Below are positions 14,982 through 31,760 of a DNA stretch of 64,000 bases, one piece after another (position 1 is the first letter of the stretch; each line of letters begins with the position of its first letter). Both the position numbers and the translations under genes were made by a program. The DNA is taken from positions 472-64,471 of the forward strand of contig JAUSEK010000012.1 of assembly GCA_030650275.1 (NCBI GenBank), written 5' to 3'. The notes beneath the pieces are model-generated. The model was not told the origin of the DNA. It searched no databases and worked only from the letters and a program-made list of their open reading frames with translations. The DNA is from Candidatus Omnitrophota bacterium. GTDB taxonomy: Bacteria > Omnitrophota > Gorgyraeia > Zapsychrales > Fredricksoniimonadaceae.

Positions 14982-15417
14982 GGGCTTCAGATTCGATCAC
15001 TTTCTTGAATATCTGCAGGTTATCCTGCGAATGCTTGTTGATGAACCCTTCGATCTGCTCGGCGGTGAATTTGGTGAATTTGGGGTCCATTTCAAAATCC
15101 TGGATCCATTTCATGGAAATGCCGCCTTGAACTTCGGTATAGAACCACACAATTTTCATATACAAAAATGGGAACAGCGGGTCCCAACGCTGGGCATAGG
15201 CGAATTTCAGGTCCTTGTATAACCAGCGTTTGGACACCCATGACTTGCCATCCTCATCGGTCAGGCGAAAGGTGATCTCGTTGCCCTTGTGCTCCAGCAC
15301 ATCAGCGCTGGCATATTCCTTGCCGAACAATTCAGTCCAGCGTTCAATCTTGTTGGAAATATCAAAAATCAACTCGTATGGCGCATTGATGATGATTGAA
15401 TTTACTGTATGTCCCAT
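14968..15417 (-). CDS. SRPBCC superfamily protein (polyketide cyclase/aromatase-like, Polyketide_cyc2 type)
   Basis: 149-aa ORF; helix-grip fold length and pattern resemble TcmN/SnoaL-associated cyclase/dehydratase. 14-nt overlap with the MFS gene. Confidence 0.65.
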   Translation of the reverse strand: MGHTVNSIIINAPYELIFDISNKIERWTELFGKEYASADVLEHKGNEITFRLTDEDGKSWVSKRWLYKDLKFAYAQRWDPLFPFLYMKIVWFYTEVQGGISMKWIQDFEMDPKFTKFTAEQIEGFINKHSQDNLQIFKKVIESEAHVSK

Positions 15418-15909: not shown

Positions 15910-16749
15910 CTATAAAATAGCGACTACCCTGCTCCAACCCGCTCCCGCATTCCTTACTTTAACAGGTAAACAAGACACCGTAAACCCAAACGGTTTCGGG
16001 ATGGTGCCTAAATTACCCAAACGTTCCATGTGACAATACTCGCGCTCGCGTCCGAGGAAATGGCAGGGCCAGATCTTACTCTTGTCCTTGGTGGTCAAAA
16101 ATTCCTTGAACATCAAAAAACACGGGCGGTCAAGGCCGATGGTGTCAATGCCCATCATCTTGATGCCCGCATCCAGCAAATACTCCACGGCATCGGGCAT
16201 CATGCCCACATATTTGTTCACGTAATCGTCGGTCCCCAACAACTTGTCCCCACCCGTATAAATGAGCACAATGTCCATTGGCTTTAAAATATATTTGATC
16301 TTTTTCAGCGCGGCAATGACATGGTCCTTGGTGATGGCATCGGGGAATTTCAAATGGGTGAGATCCAAAACCACGCCGGGGCCATAACACCACTCCAGCG
16401 GCACGTCCATGATCTGTTTGGCCGGCTTGCCCTCGCACATACTTCCATAATGGAACGGCGCATCCACATGAGAGCCCATGTGCACCGACGAATGCACCAC
16501 TTCCAAAGACGGCATTTCGCCGCCGGGGATCTCCTCTGCCGTAGCAACACGCTCGCCTTTGTCAAAACGCTCCTGGCCCCCGGGCTGTTTGCTCATCACC
16601 ACCCAGTTGAAATGTTCAACACCCTGCGCATGCGTGATGCGGTCGATCTTGGCATCGTGCGTTTCGACAAGTGTGTCATCTATGGGTAAACTAAGGTCTA
16701 TAATTTTCATAATGCCTGGATTCCCGACAGAAACATTCGGGAATGACAA
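15910..16749 (-). CDS. cyclase-family protein (PF04199-like, kynurenine-formamidase fold; HxGxHxDxPxH metal motif)
   Basis: 279-aa ORF with a VHMGSHVDAPFHY motif. The first 13 codons (MSFPNVSVGNPGI) are encoded by a repeat element, so the true start is probably Met14 at 16710. Confidence 0.8.
   Translation of the reverse strand: MSFPNVSVGNPGIMKIIDLSLPIDDTLVETHDAKIDRITHAQGVEHFNWVVMSKQPGGQERFDKGERVATAEEIPGGEMPSLEVVHSSVHMGSHVDAPFHYGSMCEGKPAKQIMDVPLEWCYGPGVVLDLTHLKFPDAITKDHVIAALKKIKYILKPMDIVLIYTGGDKLLGTDDYVNKYVGMMPDAVEYLLDAGIKMMGIDTIGLDRPCFLMFKEFLTTKDKSKIWPCHFLGREREYCHMERLGNLGTIPKPFGFTVSCLPVKVRNAGAGWSRVVAIL
16716..16748. repeat. REP-like palindromic element, copy A (ATTCCCGAC-N9-TCGGGAAT core)
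   Basis: CTGGATTCCCGACAGAAACATTCGGGAATGACA. Related copies at 24765-24837 and 29840-29867. Sits at the ACP/cyclase gene junction. Confidence 0.6.
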
Positions 16750-16754: not shown

Positions 16755-17039
16755 TTAATGCTCATGCCCACAGCCGCAGGAATGGCCGCCACTGGCCTGG
16801 GCCTTGGATCTTAGAATGCCGATGATCTCATTGAACGAATGCGTCTTTTTCAATTCATTGTCCTTAAGCGCGATGCCCAGTTCCTTTTTGATACCGACCG
16901 AGATCTCCACCATTTCCGTTGAGTCAATGTCCAAGGACTCGTCCAGTTTTGCGCCGGGGATGATCTCGCTGTCCTTGATATCCAGAACCTTTTTGAAGAT
17001 GGCTTTGACCTTGCTTTCGAGGTCTGTCTGGGTCTGCAT
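16755..17039 (-). CDS. acyl carrier protein (phosphopantetheine Ser in a DIDSTEMVEI motif) with a Cys/His-rich C-terminal tail
   Basis: 94-aa acidic ORF with an ACP four-helix pattern. The C-terminus is SGGHSCGCGHEH. Confidence 0.8.
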   Translation of the reverse strand: MQTQTDLESKVKAIFKKVLDIKDSEIIPGAKLDESLDIDSTEMVEISVGIKKELGIALKDNELKKTHSFNEIIGILRSKAQASGGHSCGCGHEH

Positions 17040-17060: not shown

Positions 17061-18293
17061 TTAAAGTTTCTGCAGGACTAAAACGCAGTTGATCCCGCCG
17101 CGTCCGCGGTTGATGATCAAAGCATTCTTGATAGTTTTTGCCTGCGCTTTGTTGGGGCAATAATCCAGGTCGCATTCCGGGTCCGGTGTCTGATAATTGA
17201 TGGTCGGCGGCACCATGCCGTGTTCCATGGCCAGCACCGTCGTGATGACGTCCAAAGCCCCGCAGGCGCCCAGCATATTGCCGAACACCGACTTAGGCGC
17301 GGACACCGGTACCTTCTTCGCGTAACCGTTAAAGGCCTGTTTGATGGCTTTTGTTTCGGTGATGTCGCCCAAAACTGTTGCAGCACCATCAGCGCAAATA
17401 TAATCAATGTCTTTGGGGGAAAGCCCGGCATCGTCCAGGGCTGATCTGATGGCACGGGCCAATTGTTTGGCATCCGGCGCCGGATCAATGCGGTTGACAG
17501 CATCGGTGGTGGACGCATAACCGATGATATTGGCATAGACATGGGCTTTACGCTTGATGGCCCGTGACTGCGGTTCCAGCGTCAAGACCCCGGCACCTTC
17601 GGCAATGGCCAAACCATCGCGGTTTTTGTCAAACGGCCGATACGCTTGGCGCGGGTCATCATTGCGTTTGGACAAAACCCCTGACGTGTTGCAGCACAAA
17701 AGCGCGTAGGGCGTCACCGGCGCTTCCATGCCCCCGGCCAAAATAAAATCGCATTTGTTACGGATGATGGTCCTGGCCGCGTAGCCGATGGCCATCAAAG
17801 AACTGGCCCTGTCCGCGACAATGGTCTTGGAAAAACCTTTGATGCCGTAATGAATGGATATCTGCCCCTGCGGTGCCGCGGGAAACCACGCGGAGGCCAT
17901 GAAAGGACTCACCCCTTCCCGGCCTTCCAGATACATATCGCGCAACTCGGTCTCGGCATACAGCCAACCGCCCAAGGCATTGCCCATAAAGATCCCGACG
18001 CGCTTTAAATCCTCGTCAGGCAGATTAATGCCCGCGTCATTCAGGCACATTTCAGAAGCCACCAAAGCCATATGCGAAAAAAGATCTATCTTCTTTAAAA
18101 GCCGCGATGAGACATTGCTATAAGCATCCAATTCTTTGACAGTCCCGGCAATGCGCGACGGATAAGCGCTGGCGTCGAAACGCTCGATCTTTTCAACCGC
18201 GCTCCTGCCATGGGCCACATTGGCCCAGAACACTTTTTTGTCCATCCCTGACGGGGATATGACGCCTAAACCGGTGATCGCAATGGGGTCCAT
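17061..18293 (-). CDS. ketosynthase-like chain-length-factor partner (KS-beta/CLF-like; catalytic triad replaced)
   Basis: 410-aa thiolase-fold KS homolog. The active-site Cys position reads ADRASS (Cys to Arg). Both catalytic His positions are changed (CADGAAT has Asp, FGNMLGA has Asn). 4-nt overlap with the upstream KS gene. Confidence 0.8.
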   Translation of the reverse strand: MDPIAITGLGVISPSGMDKKVFWANVAHGRSAVEKIERFDASAYPSRIAGTVKELDAYSNVSSRLLKKIDLFSHMALVASEMCLNDAGINLPDEDLKRVGIFMGNALGGWLYAETELRDMYLEGREGVSPFMASAWFPAAPQGQISIHYGIKGFSKTIVADRASSLMAIGYAARTIIRNKCDFILAGGMEAPVTPYALLCCNTSGVLSKRNDDPRQAYRPFDKNRDGLAIAEGAGVLTLEPQSRAIKRKAHVYANIIGYASTTDAVNRIDPAPDAKQLARAIRSALDDAGLSPKDIDYICADGAATVLGDITETKAIKQAFNGYAKKVPVSAPKSVFGNMLGACGALDVITTVLAMEHGMVPPTINYQTPDPECDLDYCPNKAQAKTIKNALIINRGRGGINCVLVLQKL

Positions 18294-19561
18294 TAGGAAT
18301 ACCTTTGCAAGGTCATGGCTGAGTGAATGCCGGAAAAACCACTGGATGTCTTAAGAATACAATTAACTTTCTTCTGTATCGCTTCGTTGGGAATGTAATA
18401 CAGATCACATAAGGGGTCCGGTTCCTGCTGATTGATGGTCGGCGGCAAAATGTTGCGCTCAAAGATCAGGGAACTCAAAGCCAGCTCTATTCCGTTGGCA
18501 CCGGCCAAAGGATGGCCGATCATGGACTTCACCGAACTGATGGGAACTTTATACGCGTACGGGCCCAAGGCCATCTTATAAGCGCTGGTCTCGAACACAT
18601 CGTTCTGGCGCGTCGAGGAACCATGGGCGTTGACATAATCAATGGTTTCGGGTTTGATGCCGGCATCTTCCAGGGCCAAGGTAATGCTGTCGGCCATGGC
18701 ATCGCCTTCCGGCGGCAGATCGGTCATGTGATAAGCATTGCAGGTGGTGCCGAAACCGGTGATCTCGCAATAAATGCGCGCCCCGCGTTTGAGGGCGTGC
18801 TCCAATTCTTCAACGACCAAAAGCCCGGCGCCTTCGGAAATGACAAAACCGTTGCGTTGATTGTCGAACGGCCGTGAGGCCCCGGCCGGATCATCATTGT
18901 GCACGGAAAGGACATTGACAGTGTCAAAAGCGCCGAACGTGATGGGGGTGACGGGCGCTTCACTGGCGCCGGTGAGCATGATGTCCGCGTCCCCGTCGCT
19001 GATGGCCTCAAAAGAAAACCCGACGGAGTCCGTGCCCGCGGTACAACCCGTAGAAATGGTATTGCAAACACCCTGAAGGCCATACTTGGCGGAAAGTTCA
19101 CTCGAAGGCGTGTTGAACATCGCGGCATCGTATAGGTCCGGACGGACAATAAGCGGATTGATGGGTTTCTTGCCGCTGTCCGTGACCAGGGCGAATTCTT
19201 CTTCCATGTATTTGGTGCCGCAAATGGCATTGGCCAAAGACACGCCCATGCGCTCTTTGTCCACTTTGAAGAGATCCAAACGGGAATCCTGCAAGGCCAT
19301 GCGGCCGGCCACCATGGCGAATTGGACATAACGGTCCATGCGTATGGCTTCTTCAAACGTAAGACCCAAAGCCACGGGGTCAAAATCACGCACCTGGGCC
19401 GCGATCTTGGTGTTAAAGAGCGACACATCAAATTCTGTGACCCGGCGCACAGCCGAAACGCCCTTGATCATGGCGCTGTAACAGGCATCATTGCCGATGC
19501 CGTTGGGCGCGATGATGCCGACGCCCGTGACAACCACCCTGCGTTTCTTATTCTTATTCAT
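18293..19561 (-). CDS. beta-ketoacyl synthase (KS-alpha type, intact Cys-His-His)
   Basis: About 422 aa. Active-site Cys in ISTGCTAGTDS, His in NAHGSST and MIGHPLAG. The ATG at 19559-19561 overlaps the stop of the preceding gene. Confidence 0.9.
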   Translation of the reverse strand: MNKNKKRRVVVTGVGIIAPNGIGNDACYSAMIKGVSAVRRVTEFDVSLFNTKIAAQVRDFDPVALGLTFEEAIRMDRYVQFAMVAGRMALQDSRLDLFKVDKERMGVSLANAICGTKYMEEEFALVTDSGKKPINPLIVRPDLYDAAMFNTPSSELSAKYGLQGVCNTISTGCTAGTDSVGFSFEAISDGDADIMLTGASEAPVTPITFGAFDTVNVLSVHNDDPAGASRPFDNQRNGFVISEGAGLLVVEELEHALKRGARIYCEITGFGTTCNAYHMTDLPPEGDAMADSITLALEDAGIKPETIDYVNAHGSSTRQNDVFETSAYKMALGPYAYKVPISSVKSMIGHPLAGANGIELALSSLIFERNILPPTINQQEPDPLCDLYYIPNEAIQKKVNCILKTSSGFSGIHSAMTLQRYS

Positions 19562-19989
19562 CAATGCCTCAACGTTTCGTCCATCAAATTGTTATGGCTG
19601 GCAATGACCTGCCAGCGGTCCTTACCTTTTTTCCACGTCATGGTGTAGCGGCGGATGACCCGCTTGCCGCCTTCCGCGTTGATCTCAACCGTAAAGATCA
19701 AATATTGCAAAATGGCGATGTCCCCGTGGAGTTTCATCTGAACAGGACGCAATTCGCAGATGGCGATATTCGTATTCTTGGTCCAGAACCCCACCCATTT
19801 CTCCAGCCACGGACGGTCAACGGGAATGGGGCTTTCATGGCCATAGCCGATCATGTCAGGATGAATGTATTTAATAAATTCATCCACACGCTTGTTGATC
19901 AAATGGTCCCAATGCGTTTCCACGCAACCCCACACCTCACGCTCTTTTTCCCCCCAATACTCTGGGATCCATGACGCTAATTGACTCAT
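19561..19989 (-). CDS. SnoaL-like/NTF2-superfamily protein (putative polyketide cyclase)
   Basis: 142-aa ORF with an alpha+beta cone-fold pattern. Translationally coupled to the KS gene. Confidence 0.65.
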   Translation of the reverse strand: MSQLASWIPEYWGEKEREVWGCVETHWDHLINKRVDEFIKYIHPDMIGYGHESPIPVDRPWLEKWVGFWTKNTNIAICELRPVQMKLHGDIAILQYLIFTVEINAEGGKRVIRRYTMTWKKGKDRWQVIASHNNLMDETLRH

Positions 19990-21002
19990 ATGGCCTCCGC
20001 TTTTAATTTTAAACCAAATGCGTTCTTCACATGTTCCACACTAAAGAATTTTCCCGTCCGCTCAACCTCATGCACCATATCCACGACGCGTTCGTTGAGC
20101 GGCGCATGGCCATGCAGACCTTTAGCCAAACGCACCGCTTCCCCGTTAATGAACTCTATTTCGCTCGTCTTGCCGCGCAGGATGCTCTGCAAAATAGAAC
20201 CGTACAACGGTTCTTTGCTCAAACCGGTCAGGGTTTTGTTGATGATCCCAGCACTTTGTTCAAGCGGCATATTGGCCAAACCTAAAATTCTTTCCTTCGG
20301 GAAATCCGGCATGGAAACCATCTCGATCTTCGCCTGCCGCACAATGTCCAGCCCTTCCTTGAGCAGCAGAATGCTCAAACGGCACAGGTCCAGATCAGCA
20401 AAGGTCTCCTGCATGGACTTGCCGACCAGCGCCGGGATGCAATTGTTGAAATTCACAAAAAGTTTCAGGTACTTCATCCCCATGATGTCGGGGCTCATCA
20501 CCACTTTAAACGCCTTGCCCAGGACCTCACCGGCCTTATGCGCGGCCGGGTCCAAAGGCGCCAAGGGACGGCCGATGATCCAATCGCCTTCAAAATTGAA
20601 AGTCACCTCGCCGGGTTTGACGTAAGTAGCGCCGAACATCACGATGCTTGACATTTGCCGGCCGCGGTCAAGATGGTTGCTCAATAAATGGTCCGCCTGT
20701 ACGCCGTTCTGGCTTGTCAAAACAAGGCCTGTTCCCAGATATTCACTATTTTGCTCAAAGGCCTTTTCCAGGTCTTGCGTCTTGACGGTAAAAATGACCA
20801 GGTCATAGGGTTTGTCCAGACGCAAGGCGGTGCGCACGCGAATATTCTCACTTCCCCGCACGCCCTTGATGGTCAGACCATTGGCCTTGATGGCCTTCAC
20901 CTGATCGGGCCGGCCCACTAAAAGCACGTCCTGCCCTGCCTTGGTCAAATAACCGGCGACAACACAACCGATGGCGCCGGCACCGATGACCGCGATCGTC
21001 AT
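19986..21002 (-). CDS. 2-dehydropantoate 2-reductase (ApbA/PanE) family NAD(P)H-dependent oxidoreductase
   Basis: 338-aa ORF with an N-terminal IAVIGAGAIG Rossmann motif and the KPR two-domain architecture. Confidence 0.8.
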   Translation of the reverse strand: MTIAVIGAGAIGCVVAGYLTKAGQDVLLVGRPDQVKAIKANGLTIKGVRGSENIRVRTALRLDKPYDLVIFTVKTQDLEKAFEQNSEYLGTGLVLTSQNGVQADHLLSNHLDRGRQMSSIVMFGATYVKPGEVTFNFEGDWIIGRPLAPLDPAAHKAGEVLGKAFKVVMSPDIMGMKYLKLFVNFNNCIPALVGKSMQETFADLDLCRLSILLLKEGLDIVRQAKIEMVSMPDFPKERILGLANMPLEQSAGIINKTLTGLSKEPLYGSILQSILRGKTSEIEFINGEAVRLAKGLHGHAPLNERVVDMVHEVERTGKFFSVEHVKNAFGLKLKAEAI

Positions 21003-21268
21003 GCCTGCCCCTTATAATGAAGACCAACCTCATCCATGATACGGATCATCAACGAATAGAAGGCCTTGGGCACTTCCGTCGTGAAAGCGGCCACAATGTC
21101 CTTTTCCTCAACCTGCGTCGAGGCGCGCTGCTGCGCGTTCTGTTCGGCCTTTTTATTCACCACTTCCTGCGCGATGCCGCGATGGAAAATGGGAATAAGA
21201 TTGAGCATCCTGTTGTATTTAGCCAGGGCCGTGGGCTCCCAGGCCATTGTCGTGTGAACGCTGACCAT
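20999..21268 (-). CDS. hypothetical small protein (89 aa) coupled to the radical-SAM gene
   Basis: Overlaps both neighbours by 4 nt. No confident motif; possibly a PCP_red-like accessory domain, as often found next to B12-binding radical-SAM enzymes. Confidence 0.45.
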   Translation of the reverse strand: MVSVHTTMAWEPTALAKYNRMLNLIPIFHRGIAQEVVNKKAEQNAQQRASTQVEEKDIVAAFTTEVPKAFYSLMIRIMDEVGLHYKGQA

Positions 21269-21272
21269 TATT

Positions 21273-22745
21273 TTACTTCGCCGCGGACACGCGCGAGTTC
21301 GCCTCCCATTTGGAAATGTTATTCATGAAATCCTTCACGCACAATTTCACCTTGATATGATAGTTGCTTTCCATGATCCGGTGGATGCGTTCCGGCTTGG
21401 AATAATATTCACGCATGCACCAGGCCCCCAAACGGCCGACCTCCTCGATGCTGAGATGATCGGTGGGGATGACCGGATGCTGGAAATCCCAGTCCTTGAG
21501 ATCGATCTTGTCCGGATCGAACCATCCTTTCTTGATCCCGTAACGCCAGTCCGGAGAATTGGGCACCGGCGTCAAATAATCCAGGGCAAAAATGTCCGAA
21601 TCGATCTCATCGGCAACGCGCAAACGTTCCTTGATCTTCGCTTCCGTGTCCTCTTTGAGGCCGATCAATACCGTCCCGACACTGCCGATATCATTTTCAC
21701 GCAAAATATCGACCGTCTTTCTGATCTGCGCGATGGTCACTCCTTTGCCGGTCTTGCTCAAGGTCATATCGTCCTCGACCTCCACACCCGTTAACGCCAA
21801 AAACAAGCCCGCTTTTTTCATCAACGGCAGGATCTCGTGCTGGGAGACCCATTGGTCGGCACGGCCCAAACACACCCAGTCGATCTTGTTGCCGCGCTTG
21901 AGTTTCTCCTCGCAGAATTCGATCATGGCGGCGGTGTCCGTATTGAACGCGTCATCCTGAAAAACAACCGTGTTGATCCCGTATTGCTTCTCTAAAATAT
22001 CCAGTTCATCAACGATGCGTTTGCCTTTCAGCCCCCGCCAGGACGTGAAATCTTTGGCGGCGGTGCGGCTGTCATAAAGCGCCCATTCATAACAAAAATG
22101 ACATTTGCCCGGACAACCGCGGGACGTCATCAATTCCGCGAACGGTTTCCAATAGGTGTGCCCGACATATTTGTCCATGGGGAACAGATCATAAGCCGGC
22201 ATGGGCAGGACGTTCAAATCAGGGATCAGATCACGGTGCGGCCCCACGACAATGGCCCCGTCTTTCTGACGGGACACCAGGCCCGGGATCTCCCGTTCAT
22301 TCCTGGGATCGCCCGCGGCCATATTATTGATCAGGTCCTCCATGGTCAATTCCGCCTCCCCGATCATGATGTAGTCAATGGTCGGGTTCAAGCGCATCTG
22401 GCGTTCGTAATCGCCGGAATACCATAACCCCCCGGCCACGGTCCTGACCTTAGGGCTAGCTTCTTTGATGATGCGAAGCCCCTCATTAAAATACCAGATG
22501 ACCGCGGCACCGCAGGTGGAATGCAGCAATTCCCCGACAAAAACAATGTCCGGCTTGCTGTTTTGAACGAATTTCAGCATCGCCTCCCAGTCCATGTCCA
22601 GCGCGCGGGAGTCGAGCACTTCCACCTGGGCTAGATTTCTTTCACGCAAATAGGCGGCCAGCTGCGCGTGCATCTGATTGGCGGCTTTGTGGTTGCCGTG
22701 TGAATCCCATGCTTTCAACGGCGGTGTCAAAAATAGAACTTTCAT
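21273..22745 (-). CDS. B12-binding radical SAM protein (class B rSAM, methyltransferase/BchE-like)
   Basis: 490-aa ORF with an N-terminal cobalamin-binding Rossmann-like domain and a CPGKCHFC (CxxxCxxC) radical-SAM cluster motif. An AGGAGA Shine-Dalgarno sequence lies upstream. Confidence 0.85.
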   Translation of the reverse strand: MKVLFLTPPLKAWDSHGNHKAANQMHAQLAAYLRERNLAQVEVLDSRALDMDWEAMLKFVQNSKPDIVFVGELLHSTCGAAVIWYFNEGLRIIKEASPKVRTVAGGLWYSGDYERQMRLNPTIDYIMIGEAELTMEDLINNMAAGDPRNEREIPGLVSRQKDGAIVVGPHRDLIPDLNVLPMPAYDLFPMDKYVGHTYWKPFAELMTSRGCPGKCHFCYEWALYDSRTAAKDFTSWRGLKGKRIVDELDILEKQYGINTVVFQDDAFNTDTAAMIEFCEEKLKRGNKIDWVCLGRADQWVSQHEILPLMKKAGLFLALTGVEVEDDMTLSKTGKGVTIAQIRKTVDILRENDIGSVGTVLIGLKEDTEAKIKERLRVADEIDSDIFALDYLTPVPNSPDWRYGIKKGWFDPDKIDLKDWDFQHPVIPTDHLSIEEVGRLGAWCMREYYSKPERIHRIMESNYHIKVKLCVKDFMNNISKWEANSRVSAAK

Positions 22746-22795
22746 AACGTTCTCCTGTTATTGTACGGGCGGGGTTACCCCGCCCCTACGTTCAT

Positions 22796-24298
22796 TTAAA
22801 ACCACGACGTGACCAGCGGCTTGCCTCCCGGCGTCTGGTCAGTGGTGACTGTTTTGATCTGTGTGTATTCATACAGCCCTTCTTTGCCCAATTCCCGTCC
22901 AAAACCGCTTTGTTTATACCCGCCGAACGGCACGGCATTGTCAAAAGCGCCATAGGTATTGATCCAGACCGTGCCGCAACGTAAACGTTTGGCCACACCA
23001 TTGGCCTTGGCCAGATCCTGCGTCCACACCATGGCCGCGAGACCATACTTGGTTTCATTGGCCAGATGAACCGCCTCATCAACGGATGTAAAAGGCATCA
23101 CGCACAATACCGGGCCAAAAATTTCTTCCTGCGCGATGGTCATGTTGTTGCGCACGTCAATAAAGATCGTGGGTTCAAGATAAGCCCCTTTAGGATTTGT
23201 CCCCGCCGGAACTTTACCGCCGCACACCAATTTTGCCCCTTCTTTCTTGCCCTGTTCGATCAAACGCAAAACAGCGTCGCGATGGGTAGTATTGACCAAA
23301 GGACCGAACTCGGTCTCAAAACTGTCCGCCGGGCCTATCGTTAATGTTTGGGCGCGTTTCACCAGTTGCCCGACGAATGTCTTATAAATTTTGTCCTCCA
23401 CCAAAAGCCGCGACCCGGCCGTGCACATCTGTCCCTGATTCATAAAAATGGAAGCCAAAGTCCCGCCCACCGCCGCTTCCATATTGCAATCGGCAAAAAC
23501 GATGTTGGGAGATTTGCCGCCCAATTCCAGCGTCAATTTCTTAATGCTCTTGGCGGCCTGGGCCATCACCGCTTTTCCGGTTTCTGTTGAGCCGGTAAAA
23601 GACACCATATCCACCTGGGAATGGGAAACCAGCTCGCTGCCGGCCTGGGCACGTGAAGAACTGATGATATTTAAAACACCTTTAGGTAATCCGGCCTGGG
23701 CGATGATCTTGCCTAAAGCCATGACCGCAACACAGGCGGTCGGCGATGGTTTTAAAACAACGGTATTGCCGGCCAGTAAAGCCGGAGCGATCTTCCACGC
23801 GGCCGTGATCAAAGGATAATTCCAGGGAATAATGGCCGCCACAACACCAACAGGTTCCCGGCTGACAAGACACAGATGAGGGGACGGTATTTCTATGGTC
23901 TCGTTATTTAACGGGGTCTCGAAATTTCCAAAATATTCAAACGTATCCGCGCAGGTCGGGACATCAATGAAGGTCGCGTGCTTGATGGTCTTACCGGTTG
24001 ACCAGCATTCCAGGTCCGCTAATTCTTTGGCATTCTCCCGGATCAGTTGGGCGATGCGCAATAAAAATTTTCCCCGTTCGGCCGTGGCCATTTGCGGCCA
24101 GCGGCCGTGGTCAAAAGCCAGGCGAGCGGCGTTGACAGCGATCTCAACGTCCACGGCATCAGCGTCCGCCAAGCGCGCGAACACCTCGCCGTTGGAAGGA
24201 TTAACGCAATCAAAATATTGACCGCTCAACGAAGGCGCTACCTTGCCTTCGAGCAACAAATCAAATTTCTCTATTTTTGATCCTATTATCATATTCAT
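22796..24298 (-). CDS. NAD(P)-dependent aldehyde dehydrogenase
   Basis: 500-aa ORF with a catalytic Cys in a QGQMCTAGSR context, plus ELGGKSP and FTGSTETG motifs. Confidence 0.9.
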   Translation of the reverse strand: MNMIIGSKIEKFDLLLEGKVAPSLSGQYFDCVNPSNGEVFARLADADAVDVEIAVNAARLAFDHGRWPQMATAERGKFLLRIAQLIRENAKELADLECWSTGKTIKHATFIDVPTCADTFEYFGNFETPLNNETIEIPSPHLCLVSREPVGVVAAIIPWNYPLITAAWKIAPALLAGNTVVLKPSPTACVAVMALGKIIAQAGLPKGVLNIISSSRAQAGSELVSHSQVDMVSFTGSTETGKAVMAQAAKSIKKLTLELGGKSPNIVFADCNMEAAVGGTLASIFMNQGQMCTAGSRLLVEDKIYKTFVGQLVKRAQTLTIGPADSFETEFGPLVNTTHRDAVLRLIEQGKKEGAKLVCGGKVPAGTNPKGAYLEPTIFIDVRNNMTIAQEEIFGPVLCVMPFTSVDEAVHLANETKYGLAAMVWTQDLAKANGVAKRLRCGTVWINTYGAFDNAVPFGGYKQSGFGRELGKEGLYEYTQIKTVTTDQTPGGKPLVTSWF

Positions 24299-24302
24299 AC
24301 GG

Positions 24303-24374
24303 AATTATGGGGACACAATACTTAATTCCTAATGCTTGTCAAACGGTTGAATTAAATATTGTGTCCCTATAATT
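24303..24374. repeat. 72-bp palindromic element with AATTATGGGGAC termini (second copy of the ITS element family)
   Basis: AATTATGGGGACACAATA ... TATTGTGTCCCTATAATT with an 18-bp stem. Intergenic between the ALDH and aldolase genes. Confidence 0.55.
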
Positions 24375-24376
24375 CA

Positions 24377-25426
24377 TTATTCCACCGGTACATTCGTCCA
24401 TAATTGAAAAATACGGCTGCAAGGCGCGTACCATTTGGAAATGCGCGCGAAATCGCCTTTTAAGAACATTTTCTTCTGCGTCGTGGCCACGAACGGGTCT
24501 ATTTGCCGGCTGAACACCGCCCGCCACACCGCTTCCGGCGCGTTGATGACAAATTCCGCGTCCGCGTCCTGCGCGACCTGCGTGATACGGCCGTTCTCAA
24601 ATGTAAACCGGTGGGCCTGCCCTGTCTCATCCAAAATGACCGCGAGGGCCATGTTCATCGCGGTCTTGTTGCCCAATTCCTGCATCTGCGCGTCGGCATT
24701 GACTAGGCGCACGATCTCTTCGATCTGTTCTTTGGAAAATAATTTGTATTTTTTATTTTTGTCACCCCCGAATGTTTCTGTCGGGGGTCCAGAAATAGAC
24801 GTGTCTGGATTCCCGACAAAAGCATTCGGGAATGACATTTTTTTATAATGAACGTCGACCAGATCCATTTTTACTTGTTCTTCCAATTCCTGAATAAGCA
24901 CAAATGCATTGAATAGATCGTCCCCCACCGCGACAACGCCGTGGTTCTTAAGCACTACGATATTGTTTATTTTCAACGCTTCCACCACTGGCGCGGGGTC
25001 AGTCACTGATGGGGTTGTTTGGGCAATGGCTTTCACTTCACCCAGATAAAATTGCGCTTCAAATGTTTTAGGCGTGAAGCGGTCGTTGGATAAAAAGAAA
25101 CCATTGGTGTAGGTTGTATGCGTATGCAAAACGCATTGGACCTTCGGCATCGCTTTGTAGATTGCCGTGTGCATCAGCCGCTCGCTGGATGCCTTACCTT
25201 TCCCGATAACCGCGCCCTTAAGGTCCATCGTGAGAATGTCTTTGTCCGTCAAATGTCCCAGACATGTTCCCGTGGCTGTTATCAAAACAGTATCGGCATC
25301 CAGGCGATGGGAAATGTTACCGTTAAAACCAAACACCAGCCCCTTGTCCCACAACAGACGTCCGGTCCGGATCATTTCTTCTTTTATTTGTTTCTCATTC
25401 ATATCAGGTATTTCTTCGGGACCCAT
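24377..25426 (-). CDS. class II aldolase/adducin-family protein (MtnB/Ald2-like) fused to a C-terminal SCP2-like domain
   Basis: 349-aa ORF. Residues 1 to about 205 are aldolase_II (GFNGNISHR, HTH motifs). Residues about 235-349 resemble an SCP2 sterol-carrier domain (FLKGDFARISKW). A 26-aa linker, MSFPNAFVGNPDTSISGPPTETFGGD, is encoded by REP-like copy B. Confidence 0.75.
   Translation of the reverse strand: MGPEEIPDMNEKQIKEEMIRTGRLLWDKGLVFGFNGNISHRLDADTVLITATGTCLGHLTDKDILTMDLKGAVIGKGKASSERLMHTAIYKAMPKVQCVLHTHTTYTNGFFLSNDRFTPKTFEAQFYLGEVKAIAQTTPSVTDPAPVVEALKINNIVVLKNHGVVAVGDDLFNAFVLIQELEEQVKMDLVDVHYKKMSFPNAFVGNPDTSISGPPTETFGGDKNKKYKLFSKEQIEEIVRLVNADAQMQELGNKTAMNMALAVILDETGQAHRFTFENGRITQVAQDADAEFVINAPEAVWRAVFSRQIDPFVATTQKKMFLKGDFARISKWYAPCSRIFQLWTNVPVE
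24765..24837. repeat. REP-like palindromic element, copy B (three consecutive hairpins) embedded in-frame in the aldolase ORF
   Basis: Hairpins CCCCCGAATGTTTCTGTCGGGGG, TCCAGAAATAGACGTGTCTGGA and ATTCCCGACAAAAGCATTCGGGAAT, followed by a T7 tract at 24838-24847. Confidence 0.6.
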
Positions 25427-25872
25427 TCCACCAAAGGCACATAACCATGAACACCTTTGGGCGCTGTTCTTTTGCCTTCAAAAGACAAAATATCCTCGGG
25501 GTTACCCAAAAACCGCGCCTTATGTTCGGCCGGTGCTAATTGAACCGGTACGTTATGGCGTTTGGCCAAAACCGCCAGGACCAACCCTCCCATATCGCAC
25601 AAAGCCCCGCTTTTATCCGCGAATTGGCAGGCCAAAACCACTTGCTTGACCAACCCCTTAAAGAACAGGAACCCGGCCATATTGTCGCAAATCACCGTCG
25701 GAACAATGCCTTTCCTGACCAGGGCCGCGCTGTTGCCTTTGCCCGCGCTAAGGTCCGGCCTACCCTCCAGAACAAAAACAGAGGCCGTCTTTGCCGGTTT
25801 AAAGGTCTTGAAAAAACCATCGGCACAAACGCCCTGTAAAAGAACAATGGATCCCGTTTTATAATCCCGCAT
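25399..25872 (-). CDS. truncated eIF-2B/MtnA-family paralog (C-terminal Rossmann-like half only)
   Basis: The ORF is open to 26025, but the probable start is the ATG at 25870-25872 (157 aa), overlapping the MtnA stop by 14 nt. Sequence parallels the MtnA C-terminal half (VICDNMAG vs VVPDNTVG; AVLAKRHNVP vs AVLAKEFGIP). Confidence 0.55.
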   Translation of the reverse strand: MRDYKTGSIVLLQGVCADGFFKTFKPAKTASVFVLEGRPDLSAGKGNSAALVRKGIVPTVICDNMAGFLFFKGLVKQVVLACQFADKSGALCDMGGLVLAVLAKRHNVPVQLAPAEHKARFLGNPEDILSFEGKRTAPKGVHGYVPLVEWVPKKYLI

Positions 25873-26824
25873 GGATGGCGATCGCTTCCGTGATATAGGT
25901 GTTGGGCACAACGTCAAACCCCGGATAAAAACCCCGCGCCTTGGGGCCAAAGACCTTTTTATTGTTAAAGACCAAAAGTTCATCGGCATCGCGCATTTCA
26001 ATGGGCATGTCATGGCCTGTGGCAACGCCTTTGGACGGCTGGGTCAAAACGATCAGCGGAATGCCGAACTCCTTGGCCAGCACCGCGATCTGGTAAGAGC
26101 CCACTTTATTGGCCACATCTCCATTGGCCGCCGAACGGTCGGAACCGATGATGATCTTGTTGACCAGCCCCTCGGCCATCAAAGCGCCGACGGTATTATC
26201 CGGGACCACGGTCACATGCGCTCCGGCTTTTTGCAGCTCCCATGCCGTCAATTTTGCGCCCTGCATGTAAGGCCGGGTTTCCGTCGCGTAAAATTTCACG
26301 CGCCTGCCTTCTTTTAAAGCGAGGAACGCGGCCATGGCCAGCTCTCCGCTGACATTGCAATGGGTCAAAATAGGATCGCCATCGGCCATATGAGCGGCGA
26401 TCCGGCGCACACGCTCAAGACGGCGATGGCGGATGCTCTCCAGAAAACCTTCCACCGTGCGTACAACGGCCTTGCAGACATCGGCATTCTCATGGGCGGC
26501 TTTGCGCGCGACACCCGTGACAATGCCCGTCACTTCCGCGAAAGGAAAGGTCGGACGGGAATTGTTCAAGGCCAGGGCAATGGCTTCTATATCTTTGACC
26601 TTTGACTTTTGGCCTTTGGCCTCCAACAAAAAAGTATTCAAAACAACCAGAAATTGTCCAAAAGCGCGGGTTTTCATGTCCCGGATCACAGCAACCGCCC
26701 CCTTAACATTACGCACAGGGATATACTTGGTCTTTAAGGGGAGCAGGGTCTCATCAAGGACATAAAGCGTATTGCCCTTGATGTGCGCCGGCCAAAATAG
26801 TGGCGATTCGAACATATTATCCAT
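25859..26824 (-). CDS. mtnA: S-methyl-5-thioribose-1-phosphate / 5-deoxyribose-1-phosphate isomerase (MtnA, eIF-2B alpha/beta/delta family)
   Basis: 321-aa ORF with eIF-2B-related family motifs, including GSDRSAANGDVANKVGSY containing the catalytic Asp region. Confidence 0.85.
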   Translation of the reverse strand: MDNMFESPLFWPAHIKGNTLYVLDETLLPLKTKYIPVRNVKGAVAVIRDMKTRAFGQFLVVLNTFLLEAKGQKSKVKDIEAIALALNNSRPTFPFAEVTGIVTGVARKAAHENADVCKAVVRTVEGFLESIRHRRLERVRRIAAHMADGDPILTHCNVSGELAMAAFLALKEGRRVKFYATETRPYMQGAKLTAWELQKAGAHVTVVPDNTVGALMAEGLVNKIIIGSDRSAANGDVANKVGSYQIAVLAKEFGIPLIVLTQPSKGVATGHDMPIEMRDADELLVFNNKKVFGPKARGFYPGFDVVPNTYITEAIAIHAGL

Positions 26825-26909
26825 GAGCGGGTCCTGTCTTCGGTTTCCCCCACCGTGCTCGTTCCTGCGCGCGGTGGGGGTCCCCCTACCGAAGCCACCC
26901 GCTGCCAGT

Positions 26910-27677
26910 TTATCTGTTCTCTTTTTGTTTAATAAGATTCAACGCAATGTTGATGAGCGCGCCTTCGGCCATGTAATAATCCGCGTTCATGAAACCCATT
27001 TCGCCCGTGATCAGATTATCGCTGACCGCCAGAATGGACACGGCCGGGATCTTATACAATTGGGCCAATGTCAAAAATACGGAACTGACCATGTCCACGG
27101 CAATGCAGTCCCGGTCAATGGCCTTGTTCACATGTTCTTTCGTTTCACGCAAAATAGCATCGGTGGACCAGACCTTGCCCTCATGGACGGCCAGCCCGGA
27201 GGCCTTGGCCGCGGCGATCAACTGGGTGTTAAGACCGGCGTCCGGCAAGGTCACGAGCGCGTCATCCACATAATACGGGGACACCCCGTCCCCGCGCACG
27301 CAACCCGTGGCCACGATCAGATCGCCGACCTTGATCGCGCTGGACAAAGCCCCGCAGCTGCCGATGCGGATCAGACAGCCCGTTTGACCGTTGCATAAGA
27401 TCTCCGTCGTGATCGCGGTATCCGCGGCAAAACGGCCGCCGTTGATGGTGGTCACCTTGACGTCTTCATAAGTCCCCGTGAACATGGTGTATTCCATGAA
27501 CGCGAATTTCTTGACGGGATTTTTCAATTTTTTCATGACGCTTTCCATGCGCTCGCGGGGGCCCGGCACAATGGCGTATTTGCCGAAATCCATCGGCAAC
27601 AACTGCACCATTCCCATCAGGTCCTTGCCGGCCAAATGAATATCCCGGGTCATTCTTTCTTTTTCTACGATGGGCAT
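26910..27677 (-). CDS. nucleoside phosphorylase, PNP_UDP_1 family (putative MTA/5'-deoxyadenosine phosphorylase)
   Basis: 255-aa ORF with the IRIGSCGAL...VGDLIVATGCVR core typical of DeoD/Udp/MtnN-fold enzymes. Confidence 0.75.
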   Translation of the reverse strand: MPIVEKERMTRDIHLAGKDLMGMVQLLPMDFGKYAIVPGPRERMESVMKKLKNPVKKFAFMEYTMFTGTYEDVKVTTINGGRFAADTAITTEILCNGQTGCLIRIGSCGALSSAIKVGDLIVATGCVRGDGVSPYYVDDALVTLPDAGLNTQLIAAAKASGLAVHEGKVWSTDAILRETKEHVNKAIDRDCIAVDMVSSVFLTLAQLYKIPAVSILAVSDNLITGEMGFMNADYYMAEGALINIALNLIKQKENR

Positions 27678-29179
27678 ACGATCTCCTGTTTTAACAATTC
27701 CTTGTCGATCTTTCCTGTCCTGTTTTTAGGCAGGCCTTCTCTTATTTCAACGGTCTGCGGCACCTTGAAATTCGCCAAATGTTCACGGGCAAAATGACGC
27801 ACGTCCTGCGGTGTCAATGCGGCACCGGCTTTAAGCACCACAAAGGCCTTGAGCGCTTCGCCTTTGAGGGCATCCGATATTCCTATGACAGCCGCCTCCA
27901 GAATTCCCTCGTGCTTGCATAGGGCGCTTTCCACTTCCGGCGCGTAGACGATCTGCCCGGCCACCTTGATCATTTCTTTCTTGCGCCCGACGATATACAA
28001 AAATCCGTCCGTATCAAAACGCCCCAGATCGCCGGTATGGAACCACCCGTTGCGTTTGGCTAAAGCCGTGCTTTCAGGGTCTTTGTAATATTCCTGCATC
28101 ACCACCCAGCCGCGGATGACGATCTCGCCGATATCACCGTCGTGCAGGATATTATCTTCATCATCCACGATCCGGATCTCACAATTCGGCGCCGGCTTGC
28201 CGACGCTTTCGATCTTCGGGTCATTCAAAGGCGTGACCGTATTGGGCGGGCATGTCTCGGTCATGCCCCAGCCGTTGAGGAGCTTGGCGTTGGGGCAATA
28301 CTTATGGAAACGTTCCAAAATATCCGGCGAAGAGGGCGCCCCAAAAACCACCACCCAGCGCAGGGATGAAAGGTCAAATTGTTCAATATTTTTTAAGGTC
28401 AGCAGGGCCGTGTACATAGGCGGGACAATGTGAAAACACGTGACCTTGTGCCGGGCCACGTTCCTTAAAAATTCCAGCGGCTGGAAACGGTCCATCAACA
28501 CCAGGGTGATGCCGAACAGGATGCAATTCTGGATATAAATGAAACCGCCGATGTGACTTAAAGGAAGGGCGCACAATTTCACGTCGCGCTCGTTTAAGTC
28601 CACGAAATGTTTCATCGCTTCCGGCGACCCGTCCAGATGGCGGTAATTCAACAAAATGCCTTTAGGATTGCCGGTCGTTCCGGACGTGTACATGATCAGC
28701 GCCGGGTCCCCTTCCTTGACTTCGGCCGGCGGCGTGCTCCCGCTACCTAAAAGCGAGGCCCACGGCTGTTCCCACGCCAGTCCGAGCGGCTGTCCCACAA
28801 CAATAACGGTCTTAAGCAACGGCAGGGCCGCTTTTAAGACCTGAATGTCCACATCCGGCCTGTATAAAGCGATCAAAACTTCGGTCTCCGAATGCCCCAA
28901 ACAGGAGACCAATTCCTCTGTTTTGAGCATATGGTCCAGGGGCACGACCGTGGCCCCCAGATAAAACAAGGACAGATACCCGTAAACATACTCCGGGCAA
29001 TTGGGAAGATAAATGGCGACTTTAGAGGACTTGCGCACACCGGCACAGGACAGCCCTTTGGCCAATTGAAAAACCATGGCCTTAAGGTCATTAAAAGAAA
29101 CCGGCTGGTCCTTAAAGATCAGGGCCGGCTTTGTCCCAAAACGATTTGCTGAAGATTGTAAGATATTGGTAATATTCAT
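27665..29179 (-). CDS. AMP-dependent synthetase/ligase (acyl- or aryl-CoA ligase, ANL superfamily)
   Basis: 504-aa ORF with a YTSGTTGNPKG adenylation motif, a GWGMTE motif and a C-terminal Lys motif. First gene of the co-directional block. Confidence 0.85.
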   Translation of the reverse strand: MNITNILQSSANRFGTKPALIFKDQPVSFNDLKAMVFQLAKGLSCAGVRKSSKVAIYLPNCPEYVYGYLSLFYLGATVVPLDHMLKTEELVSCLGHSETEVLIALYRPDVDIQVLKAALPLLKTVIVVGQPLGLAWEQPWASLLGSGSTPPAEVKEGDPALIMYTSGTTGNPKGILLNYRHLDGSPEAMKHFVDLNERDVKLCALPLSHIGGFIYIQNCILFGITLVLMDRFQPLEFLRNVARHKVTCFHIVPPMYTALLTLKNIEQFDLSSLRWVVVFGAPSSPDILERFHKYCPNAKLLNGWGMTETCPPNTVTPLNDPKIESVGKPAPNCEIRIVDDEDNILHDGDIGEIVIRGWVVMQEYYKDPESTALAKRNGWFHTGDLGRFDTDGFLYIVGRKKEMIKVAGQIVYAPEVESALCKHEGILEAAVIGISDALKGEALKAFVVLKAGAALTPQDVRHFAREHLANFKVPQTVEIREGLPKNRTGKIDKELLKQEIVCPS

Positions 29180-29867: not shown

Positions 29868-29911
29868 AAACAGTCTGTTACGACGCTTGAGCCATTGACC
29901 CCACCCCTAAA

Positions 29912-30751: not shown

Positions 30752-30777
30752 CGCCGCGTTCTTCCTGGCTTTGGGCC

Positions 30778-31041
30778 TTAGAAGTTTTTTGAGAGCACGT
30801 CCTTCAAGGCCCGGTTGTCCAAAGACAAGTCGGCCACAATGTGCTTGAGCTTGCTGTTCTCTTCCTCAAGCGCCTTCATCTTCCTCAAATCAGAGACCTC
30901 AAGACCTGAATACTTGGCCTTCCACTTGTAAAACGTGGCATCCGATATGCCGTGTTGCCGGCAAAGCTCGCCTGTTTTGGTCCCAGCTTGGGCATCCTTG
31001 AGCACTGCGATGATCTGTTCTTCGGTGTAGCGTTTTGCCAT
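30778..31041 (-). CDS. IS3-family transposase OrfA (HTH plus leucine-zipper)
   Basis: 87-aa ORF MAKRYTEEQIIAVLK...GISDATFYKWKAKY, typical of IS3 OrfA. Confidence 0.85.
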   Translation of the reverse strand: MAKRYTEEQIIAVLKDAQAGTKTGELCRQHGISDATFYKWKAKYSGLEVSDLRKMKALEEENSKLKHIVADLSLDNRALKDVLSKNF

Positions 31042-31247: not shown

Positions 31248-31760
31248 TTACAGACGCTGGATGAGATTAACTGTGGAAGCGATCTCGGCATCAACAAGGT
31301 CAAGATCATGTTGAAGGATCAGCCGGATGGATTCCGACTTTTGGGGGGATTTTTCTCTCAATTGGGCCAGTTGGCGGCTGATCTTCCTTAAAAGCGTGAT
31401 CCTGGCCTTCAAGCGTCGTTTGGCCATGTCTTTGTCCACCAAAGGCAGAAAATACAAAGACAGGTCCATCTGAAAGAACGGGCGCTCCAAAGATAAAAAA
31501 CTGGACTGAACGAGCCGGTCAAATTTCTTTTTGCCCTTGACGGTGATGCGGTAAACGTGTTTTTCCGGACGGCGACCCTCCCTGCCGGTCTGTTTTTCAA
31601 TGAAACCCTCTTCTTCCATTTTCTGCAGAGGATAATAAATGGATTTGATCTTGATCCCGATATTGGGAGCCACGTCCGCTTCGATCTGGCGTTTGATCTC
31701 GTAGCCGTGTTTGGGGCCCGACGCTAAAAGACCTAAAAATAAAAGTTCGTGTTCGATCAT
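31248..31760 (-). CDS. PadR-family transcriptional regulator
   Basis: 170-aa ORF with a winged-helix GYEIKRQIE...IYYPLQKMEEEGFI PadR signature. Confidence 0.85.
   Translation of the reverse strand: MIEHELLFLGLLASGPKHGYEIKRQIEADVAPNIGIKIKSIYYPLQKMEEEGFIEKQTGREGRRPEKHVYRITVKGKKKFDRLVQSSFLSLERPFFQMDLSLYFLPLVDKDMAKRRLKARITLLRKISRQLAQLREKSPQKSESIRLILQHDLDLVDAEIASTVNLIQRL

Follow-up and report, generated by a model that had tools for sequence, protein, structure and literature searches.

A conserved phosphorylase-isomerase-aldolase module beside a B12-radical-SAM gene in type II polyketide operons of Omnitrophota, a candidate variant of dihydroxyacetone phosphate shunt chemistry

In a metagenome-assembled genome of a Candidatus Omnitrophota bacterium (assembly GCA_030650275.1), we analysed a stretch of 64,000 nucleotides (contig JAUSEK010000012.1, positions 472 to 64,471 of the forward strand), further called the window, to which all positions below refer. 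It carries a minus-strand operon of 17.5 kb (11635-29179), in the middle of which lies a module of four genes for a nucleoside phosphorylase, an isomerase of the MtnA type, a short relative of this isomerase, and an aldolase of class II, followed by genes for an aldehyde dehydrogenase (ALDH) and a B12-binding radical S-adenosylmethionine enzyme (rSAM, with SAM for S-adenosylmethionine). From 29179 down to 11635 every long open reading frame (ORF) is on the minus strand and densely packed, in the order acyl ligase, module, rSAM and type II polyketide synthase (PKS), the latter consisting of a ketosynthase (KS), an inactive chain length factor (CLF), an acyl carrier protein (ACP) and cyclases. 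Between 21273 and 27677 adjoining genes overlap or are separated by at most 85 nt and therefore form one operon, and the ligase gene, which shares 13 nt with the phosphorylase gene, is part of the same unit. Domains were called with Pfam and NCBIfam and scores were set against the curated cut-offs. These calls bore out an earlier note on this DNA, made from the letters alone, as to the coordinates, the gene identities and the contiguous, co-directional arrangement on the minus strand.

The module opens with a PNP_UDP_1 nucleoside phosphorylase of 255 aa (26910..27677; Pfam E 1.4e-30) which, judged by its sequence, is of the hexameric type (NP-I) and stands as a separate clade between DeoD and Udp, scoring 92.5 bits with the Udp and 88 bits with the DeoD model at cut-offs of 232-280. 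Models of methylthioadenosine phosphorylase (MTAP) gave no match to it at E<1e-5, so that it is not of the MtnP type. In an alignment to manually entered reference sequences of E. coli DeoD and Udp, the phosphate ligands are retained as equivalents of Arg24, Arg87 and Ser90, the motif VSDN aligns with VSDH of DeoD and thus supplies the equivalent of the catalytic Asp204 of DeoD-type enzymes, and the Udp-specific insertion with the uracil ligands (E. coli Gln166/Arg168) is absent. The canonical dihydroxyacetone phosphate (DHAP) shunt proposed by the earlier note does not fit a phosphorylase that is DeoD/Udp-like instead of MtnP, nor family scores this far below their cut-offs. An identity of the HpnG or MqnB type was considered as well and is unsupported, with 45 bits for the HpnG model and no match to a futalosine hydrolase model.

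The second enzyme, of 321 aa (25859..26824; IF-2B E 1.9e-46), is a predicted isomerase of the MtnA type that would convert an aldose-1-phosphate into a ketose-1-phosphate. It scores 195-206 bits with the MtnA models (cut-offs 271-279) against 128 bits with ribose-1,5-bisphosphate isomerase and aligns over its full length with solved MtnA structures, the top match in the Protein Data Bank (PDB) being Thermotoga maritima MtnA (140 bits). Its motifs THCN, with the Cys, and GSDR, with the Asp, align with the catalytic motifs of the MtnA proteins of T. maritima and Pyrococcus horikoshii and of 4ldq. The gene that follows encodes a short IF-2B paralogue of 157 aa (25399..25872; IF-2B E 1.1e-11, profile positions 128-267), for which the mechanically called ORF spans 25399-26025 and the start was set by homology. 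It comprises the C-terminal Rossmann half only and is devoid of the catalytic Cys and Asp, GADR being replaced by ACQF. What had been described as a truncated paralogue is in fact a conserved gene, found in 79 of 83 loci as well as in the distant loci L087, L089 and L090 and measuring 149-172 aa in relatives, and we rejected a pseudogene or decayed copy on the grounds of this conservation. The protein is presumed to be a non-catalytic partner of the isomerase.

The fourth gene (24377..25426; Aldolase_II E 1.2e-40) encodes a putative Zn-dependent class II aldolase (residues 1-200 approximately), joined by a disordered linker to an SCP2 domain (residues 222-349). Its product is 100% identical to an NCBI protein filed under Candidatus Omnitrophota. 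The aldolase part keeps the equivalents of FucA N29, T43/G44, S71, E73, H92, H94 and H155, and as such the Zn histidines, the Glu and the phosphate pocket. Both its sequence and its predicted fold place it at much the same distance (19-30% identity) from FucA, YgbL/OtnC, Aquifex aq_1979 and DrdA; its top model is archaeal FucA with 117 bits, next to OtnC with 109 bits, a ribulose-1-phosphate aldolase model with 58 bits and decarboxylases such as NovR. An MtnB match over the full length was not found, PRK09220 reaching 80 bits over residues 9-105 and TIGR03328 71 bits at a cut-off of 137, and DrdA (6btd), with a sequence score of 44 bits, does not lie nearer than FucA, YgbL or aq_1979. Of the classification as an MtnB/Ald2-like class II aldolase, the class and the intact residues stand, but MtnB is matched in part only and, as far as sequence can tell, the enzyme falls outside the DrdA group. 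In the AlphaFold model (pLDDT 88.8) the N-terminal part matches FucA, DrdA and YgbL (PDB 6VOQ in the Foldseek search). The SCP2 domain, which the earlier note did not mention, scores 22.8 bits in Pfam against a cut-off of 21.3, and its 128 residues are modelled with pLDDT 95 and superpose on Thermus thermophilus SCP2 with TM-scores of 0.82-0.85 (E 7e-9 to 4e-8); UbiJ-SCP2 and the alkyl-binding C-terminal domains of alkylsulfatases are matched too. The model thus indicates that the C-terminal domain has the SCP2 lipid-carrier fold. It is fused to every aldolase of this family, and in Omnitrophota its sequence is better conserved than that of the aldolase domain. The earlier note had held that clustering of aldolase and phosphorylase with fuculose and uridine enzymes would point to an unrelated sugar pathway. 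Archaeal FucA and uridine phosphorylase are indeed the leading models, but the margins are trivial in both cases, and the Asp of the VSD motif, the missing Udp insertion and an isomerase of the MtnA type, which is out of place in a fucose or uridine pathway, speak to the contrary.

Downstream lies the gene of a putative hydrolytic NAD(P)+-dependent ALDH of 500 aa (22796..24298; Aldedh E 5e-175), which resembles betaine aldehyde dehydrogenase (556 bits, below the cut-off) and contains the motifs ELGGKSP, with the Glu, and GQMCTAGSR, with the Cys. The adjacent rSAM of 490 aa (21273..22745; PF02310 E 1.4e-10, PF04055 E 9e-14) combines an N-terminal B12-binding domain with the motif CPGKCHFC (CxxxCxxC), the make-up of a class B rSAM; its top models are BchE (179 bits, cut-off 481) and HpnJ (133 bits), and AprD4 is matched in the PDB with 59 bits. 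At the other end of the module, an AMP-forming acyl ligase of 504 aa (27665..29179; AMP-binding E 6e-89) has normal adenylation motifs, a fatty-acid-CoA ligase (PRK06187, 435 bits, cut-off 476) as top NCBIfam model and FadD5, 4CL, oxalyl-CoA synthetase and MenE as PDB neighbours. It was seen only in versions of the module that also bear a PKS, and is a candidate for activating the acid made by the ALDH.

By sequence, the genes between 16755 and 19564 constitute a type II PKS with a KS, a CLF without the catalytic Cys, a discrete ACP and, next to them, cyclases. The KS-alpha (18293..19564) finds the KS of actinorhodin as best match (1tqy_A, 386 bits), then AntD (6smo), possesses the Cys-His-His catalytic residues and is 62-97% identical across the cluster loci. 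In the CLF-like partner (17061..18293), aligned to Bacillus subtilis FabF (4ls5), the catalytic triad is gone, with Cys replaced by Arg, which is kept among orthologues, and the two His by Asp and Asn; the canonical Gln of CLFs is missing too. With the CLF catalytically dead, this PKS cannot prime itself by decarboxylation of malonyl-ACP, and no KSIII or acyltransferase was seen among the scanned cluster genes. The ACP of 94 aa (16755..17039) has a DST motif, is 40% identical to that of locus L086 and corresponds in position to PP-binding genes in L001, L003 and L086. Its Cys/His-rich tail, GGHSCGCGHEH, is unusual among ACPs and resembles a metal-binding motif. The two cyclases are a PF04199 'putative cyclase' with metal-dependent hydrolase fold (15910..16749; Cyclase E 1.2e-28), 72-95% identical between loci, and an SRPBCC protein resembling polyketide cyclases/dehydrases (14968..15417), whose orthologues in L086 and L087 (60-62% identity) match Polyketide_cyc2 and Polyketide_cyc. 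The Pfam-assigned tail of the cluster consists of an MFS transporter (13785-14981), a short-chain dehydrogenase/reductase (SDR; 12979-13788) and an Amidohydro_2 protein (11635-12552), and orthologues of the last two (59% and 48%) lie inside the rearranged cluster L087.

Between rSAM and KS three smaller genes are found. A conserved protein of 89 aa (20999..21268) gives weak matches to PCP_red, a domain of protochlorophyllide reductase subunit B, and to DUF2621; an oxidoreductase of the NAD(P)H-dependent ApbA/PanE family (19986..21002; ApbA E 1.2e-32, with ApbA_C) follows; and a SnoaL-like/DUF4440 protein (19561..19989; DUF4440 E 5e-8) is accessory and confined to part of the clade, with a copy in 14 of the 49 loci defined below. 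A Pfam scan at E up to 1 of ten conserved uncharacterised ORFs from the window and its relatives gave no SAM hydroxide adenosyltransferase/fluorinase domain, the ORFs other than that of the 89-aa protein matching SRPBCC, DUF4440 or nothing; as such a fluorinase- or chlorinase-type domain is absent from these ten ORFs, we rejected a halogenase-type origin of the nucleoside.

To map conservation, the aldolase::SCP2 protein was used as a query against one genome per species, which gave 147 relatives and 80 retained loci, titled either Omnitrophota or with the crude label 'uncultured Planctomycetales'. In the species-representative Omnitrophota genomes 49 loci reach from the ligase to the KS, and in all of them the gene order is colinear. 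Each of these 49 loci has the isomerase, the short IF-2B protein, the aldolase::SCP2 fusion, the ALDH, the ApbA protein and the 89-aa protein; 48 of them have the phosphorylase and 44 the rSAM. The reverse test, with the CLF alone as bait on metagenome contigs, yielded 23 loci with 10 kb of upstream sequence, all 23 of which have the module upstream of the CLF, while the SRPBCC, SDR and Amidohydro_2 genes lie downstream. The link to polyketide genes that had been noticed earlier is thus complete within this clade in both directions, and the PKS concerned is of type II.

The loci without the rSAM gene keep the module. A loss simulated by masked sequence was ruled out, there being no runs of N in L018, L027, L077 and L082. 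In L018 the gene of the 89-aa protein comes straight after the ALDH gene, L027 has the identical order, and in L077 and L082 the rSAM position is taken by a membrane protein of about 310 aa that, judged by its sequence, looks SPFH/band-7-like. The 89-aa protein persists where the rSAM is lost and is therefore not simply its partner. These loci support a module that is independent of an rSAM gene in cis.

More distant versions were found by querying 1.84 billion representative proteins with the fusion, whose relatives range to identities as low as about 32%. L086, at 50% identity, shares the gene order of the window. L087 and L088 (37%) hold the same set reordered with the PKS first (KS, CLF, ACP, cyclases, SDR, rSAM, Amidohydro_2, phosphorylase, phosphopantetheinyl transferase (PPTase), MtnA, short IF-2B, aldolase::SCP2, ALDH), the PPTase gene lying between those of phosphorylase and isomerase. 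L089 (41%) comprises rSAM, phosphorylase, isomerase, short IF-2B, aldolase::SCP2 and ALDH only, with neither PKS nor ligase; at 203-3438 and 13961-14746 this locus further encodes a second ALDH, an uncharacterised protein of 137 aa, a class III aminotransferase and an MTAP, and as such two different nucleoside phosphorylases within 6 kb. L090 (39%), from a metagenome-assembled genome (MAG) of Syntrophaceae, has the four-gene core without rSAM; here the core (6667-10987) starts 3 nt after a gene for an acyltransferase of the LpxL/lipid-A type, an arrangement that, along with the SCP2 domain, hints at some link to lipids. In L084 (38%, 10001-12264) the fusion stands with an ApbA reductase 46% identical to that of the window and without phosphorylase or isomerase, which suggests a functional tie between aldolase::SCP2 and ApbA that is independent of the other two enzymes, and in L085 the fusion gene stands alone. 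The rSAM relatives beside the module in L086, L087 and L089 are 55%, 53% and 39% identical to that of the window over their full length, so that one rSAM subfamily adjoins the module in three gene architectures. The ALDHs found in L087 and L089 share 56% identity, but each only 35% with the Omnitrophota ALDH. Taken together, these distributions support phosphorylase, isomerase, short IF-2B protein and aldolase::SCP2 as an autonomous functional unit, a single B12-rSAM subfamily and an ALDH as its frequent companions, and type II PKS plus ligase as a lineage-specific addition that, once made, was never parted from the module.

The enzyme set, its order and its intact catalytic residues fit the route from phosphorylase over isomerase and aldolase to ALDH that had been proposed before. 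The phosphorylase would split an adenosine-derived nucleoside into purine and pentose-1-phosphate, the isomerase would turn the latter into pentulose-1-phosphate, and Zn-dependent aldol cleavage would yield DHAP and an aldehyde made of ribose C4' and C5' with the substituent of C5', which the ALDH would oxidise to a carboxylic acid. Such chemistry has precedents in the phosphorylase/kinase-isomerase-aldolase route of 5-deoxyribose (PMC6079011) and in the fluoroacetate pathway, in which 5'-fluoro-5'-deoxyadenosine is processed by phosphorylase, isomerase, aldolase and aldehyde dehydrogenase (PMC3999930). In PKS clusters the adjacent AMP-ligase would activate the ALDH product and deliver it as the starter unit, a supply we infer because the CLF is dead and the PKS is unable to prime itself; if so, by-product disposal and building-block supply would be one process. 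The most economical reason for the recruitment of the module beside B12-rSAMs is that it would consume the 5'-deoxyadenosine they release. Our tentative reading is therefore that the module uses a common adenosyl by-product (5'-deoxyadenosine or methylthioadenosine (MTA)) and that in PKS clusters the ligase-activated acid primes the non-self-priming PKS. What the sequences show directly is gene content, intact catalytic motifs, conservation and co-occurrence; the enzyme activities, the nucleoside, the passage of the acid to the ligase and the kind of polyketide are predictions.

We assign this reading a probability of roughly 0.45, mainly on account of the SCP2 fusion, the half-length IF-2B protein, the retained His and lost Glu of the phosphorylase and the MTAP of L089, all of which bear on the identity of the nucleoside. 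The following points weigh against it. None of the module proteins reaches a curated NCBIfam cut-off, so that all activities are extrapolated. The phosphorylase retains the N-terminal His by which DeoD and Udp bind the 5'-OH of the ribose, which argues against a strictly 5'-deoxy substrate, and its ribose-binding EME motif is replaced by DM(V/I) with loss of the ribose-binding Glu. The MTAP of L089 (TIGR01694, 278 bits, at the cut-off) is encoded at about 3 kb from the module, and with a bona fide MTAP so near the module phosphorylase may serve a different nucleoside. The rSAM gene is gone from 6 of 58 species-representative loci and from 2 metagenome loci that keep the module (about 10%). The co-occurrence of module and B12-rSAM in relatives, which the earlier note had wanted compared, is accordingly recurrent without being strict, and a role in disposal for this particular rSAM is weakened by retention of the module where the rSAM is lost and by the core that stands without any rSAM. 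A model of salvage and starter supply does not account for the universal SCP2 fusion, and as the acid formed from 5'-deoxyadenosine would be acetate, both a FadD/4CL-like ligase and a lipid carrier look oversized. Finally, ligase-like proteins of non-actinobacterial type II PKSs can have roles other than starter loading, as does AntG of Photorhabdus.

Pure salvage is an unlikely explanation, though one with evidence of its own. The module and the ALDH would do no more than detoxify and recycle 5'-deoxyadenosine or MTA, with adenine, DHAP and either acetate or methylthioacetate as products; no nucleoside atoms would enter the polyketide, the siting in the PKS operon would reflect co-regulation with a high-flux rSAM, and the ligase would load an unrelated starter or act like AntG. 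The core alone in the Syntrophaceae MAG and the PKS-free L089 imply a function independent of polyketides, adjacency to the rSAM recurs, and the chemistry is that of a published disposal route (PMC6079011). Salvage alone would not lead one to expect a module that is never missing in the CLF clade (49/49, 23/23) and stays when the rSAM is lost, a PPTase gene among the module genes of L087, or a ligase that appears only alongside the PKS, and a CLF that cannot prime calls for a dedicated starter supply.

It is improbable that the rSAM itself makes the substrate of the module by modifying C5' of adenosine or SAM, either by C-methylation of the hydroxymethyl carbon or by joining the 5'-deoxyadenosyl radical to a hydrophobic acceptor, after which trimming of the ribose would leave a two-carbon-extended aldehyde (lactaldehyde or R-CH2-CHO) and finally an acid starter. 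Both types of reaction are known, since GenK and Fom3 C-methylate their substrates and HpnH and MqnE attach the 5'-deoxyadenosyl radical, and PNP_UDP_1 enzymes strip the base after radical adenosylation in the hopanoid (HpnG) and futalosine (MqnB) pathways. Such an origin would suit one rSAM subfamily in three architectures, one of them PKS-free, the SCP2 lipid-carrier domain on every aldolase together with a fatty-acid-ligase-like ligase, the conserved His for a substrate with a 5'-OH, and archaeal FucA, a lactaldehyde producer, as top aldolase model. Against this, rSAM-less clusters keep the whole module, the core exists without an rSAM, and the HpnG model stays at 45 bits; moreover, we know of no B12-rSAM that adenosylates its substrate or methylates a nucleoside at C5'. 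In an equally speculative form of this idea, rSAM and module together would be a new means of constructing carbon skeletons from SAM, a 'C2 homologation by adenosine', with C5' methylated or joined to an acceptor held by SCP2, C1'-C3' removed as DHAP and the oxidised product priming the PKS, similar to the futalosine route but with a thioester starter at its end.

Somewhat less probable still is ordinary catabolism of purine nucleosides, in which adenosine, inosine or guanosine would pass through ribose-1-phosphate and ribulose-1-phosphate to DHAP and glycolaldehyde, and then to glycolate, along a short-cut haloarchaeal ribulose-1-phosphate aldolase route that might feed a glycolyl starter. 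A DeoD/Udp-like phosphorylase with the 5'-OH-binding His and a purine-type Asp suits such a route, the aldolase matches include the model of ribulose-1-phosphate aldolase (58 bits), and L089 has its separate MTAP. The isomerase prefers the MtnA models (195-206 bits) to ribose-1,5-bisphosphate isomerase (128 bits), however, direct isomerisation of ribose-1-phosphate by MtnA-type enzymes is to our knowledge not established, and both the recurrent rSAM adjacency and the SCP2 domain are left unexplained. Least probable of all is unrelated chemistry, in which the 'aldolase' would instead work as an MtnB-like dehydratase, epimerase or decarboxylase/oxygenase, with either a sugar phosphate or an aromatic acid from the polyketide pathway as its substrate, and the likeness to the shunt would be coincidental: the superfamily is diverse, with OtnC (109 bits), MtnB (80 bits, N-terminal part) and NovR-like decarboxylases among the matches, and the fusion occurs without phosphorylase or isomerase beside ApbA in L084 and in L085, but the phosphate pocket and the Glu73 equivalent of true aldolases are conserved, phosphorylase, isomerase and aldolase remain adjacent across 32-100% sequence divergence and rearrangements, and the aldolase is followed by an ALDH in two ALDH lineages (35% identical), as fits an aldehyde product.

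Upstream of the operon lies a PadR-family regulator gene (31248..31760, minus strand; Pfam PadR E 7e-14). In related genomes (L001, L003 and L086) it directly precedes the ligase gene, at about 110 nt in relatives, and it is present in 50 of the 83 loci. In the window the two are split by an IS3-family insertion sequence (29892-31121; transposase ORFs 29912-30751 and 30778-31041) with perfect inverted repeats of 16 nt, so that in this genome the operon may no longer be coupled to its promoter or regulator. Further upstream, the neighbourhood of PadR (31757-37501 in the window, 1-6188 in L003) is syntenic between distant Omnitrophota, with small ORFs, a coiled-coil protein, an NAD-epimerase, a response regulator-EAL protein, DHFR and ThyA in this order, so that the cluster looks like vertically inherited core genome and not like a mobile island. 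Directly downstream of the cluster, a complete rRNA operon (16S, tRNA-Ile, tRNA-Ala, 23S, 5S) occupies 6251-11467 on the minus strand. The gap of 490 nt between the cyclase and SRPBCC genes is otherwise free of ORFs and holds a tRNA-like element on the opposite, plus strand (15482-15555; 46 bits with the Rfam tRNA model, which exceeds the gathering score), for which ARAGORN proposes a four-base anticodon (ggcg), pointing to an odd or decayed tRNA; a decayed gene was sought in 15418-15909 and only this element was found. Elsewhere in the window, 50096-58442 (minus strand) encodes a two-partner secretion (TPS) pair of an exoprotein of 2161 aa with TPS domain and PATR repeats and a transporter of the ShlB/FhaC type, and its ShlB-type partner and TPS domain led us to reject the 2161-aa ORF as a PKS. 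A low-GC region (38-42%) at 61535-63868 on the minus strand may be a small defence island; it encodes one protein with a TIR domain and one of the Schlafen/AlbA_2-HATPase type.

If our reading is correct, the module would represent a second version, distinct in structure, of the 5'-deoxynucleoside/DHAP-shunt chemistry, in uncultured anaerobes in which its parts are at present annotated as 'fuculose aldolase', 'eIF-2B' and 'phosphorylase'. It would also mean that the salvage of a radical-SAM by-product is built into a polyketide pathway, with the ribose of SAM as a possible source of the PKS starter. The strongly conserved type II PKS cluster is thereby marked in Omnitrophota, a phylum without a characterised natural product, and is of relevance both for SAM salvage and for the natural products of uncultured phyla. 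A catalogue of KS-CLF pairs names Omnitrophica among the phyla that have them (PMC10132072), and in a literature search on Omnitrophota with polyketide and on aldolase, SCP2, rSAM and KS combined, we found neither the cluster nor the fusion described.

In the best reading of these sequences, the module is an undescribed, self-contained variant of the chemistry of the DHAP shunt and the fluoroacetate pathway, paired repeatedly with one B12-rSAM subfamily. The DHAP shunt runs through MtnP, or MtnN and MtnK, followed by MtnA and Ald2 in Rhodospirillum rubrum and extraintestinal pathogenic E. coli (ExPEC), and through DrdK, DrdI and DrdA in Bacillus thuringiensis (PMC6079011, PMC10986504). Common to both would be a pentose-1-phosphate, MtnA-type isomerisation and cleavage by a class II aldolase to DHAP and an aldehyde, with clustered genes and the removal of radical-SAM/SAM by-products as rationale. 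The shunt, however, is a catabolic cluster of three genes, whereas the present system has a hexameric DeoD/Udp-type phosphorylase, an extra non-catalytic half of IF-2B, an SCP2-fused aldolase that seems to lie outside the DrdA group, and a dedicated ALDH and acyl ligase in a type II PKS operon. The chloroethylmalonyl-CoA pathway of salinosporamide likewise leads a SAM-derived, 5'-modified adenosine via a phosphorylase to a polyketide building block; in that pathway (cited in PMC6302742), phosphatase, dehydrogenase and dehydratase steps then provide a type I PKS with an extender unit, and no isomerase or aldolase cleavage is part of that route.

The fluoroacetate pathway is the established case in which shunt chemistry serves biosynthesis instead of salvage, and it shares with our proposal the four downstream steps including the ALDH, from a 5'-substituted 5'-deoxyadenosine to an acid X-CH2-COOH. 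It differs in its upstream enzyme, which in the window is a B12-rSAM, no fluorinase- or chlorinase-type enzyme having been found among the scanned conserved ORFs, and in that its genes for aldolase and ALDH lie apart from the other fl pathway genes. The futalosine (MqnE/MqnB) and hopanoid (HpnH/HpnG/HpnJ) pathways also combine rSAM and PNP_UDP_1 enzymes and likewise pass ribose carbons into the product, but an isomerase/aldolase step does not occur there. With the hopanoid pathway the present system has in common that HpnJ, a B12-binding rSAM, is the second-best model for its rSAM; unlike both, it has no HpnH- or MqnE-type enzyme, and its phosphorylase resembles HpnG by 45 bits only. As to the polyketide part, there is a likeness with type II PKSs outside Actinobacteria, for instance the anthraquinone system AntD/E/F of Photorhabdus (PDB 6smo), which equally has a KS-alpha and CLF, a discrete ACP, SRPBCC/small cyclases and an AMP-ligase. 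Priming of a type II PKS by a ligase is exemplified by EncN of enterocin biosynthesis. From both, the Omnitrophota cluster is set apart by a CLF with Arg, Asp and Asn in place of the triad and without the usual Gln, and by carrying a predicted nucleoside-degrading module and a B12-rSAM within the cluster itself.

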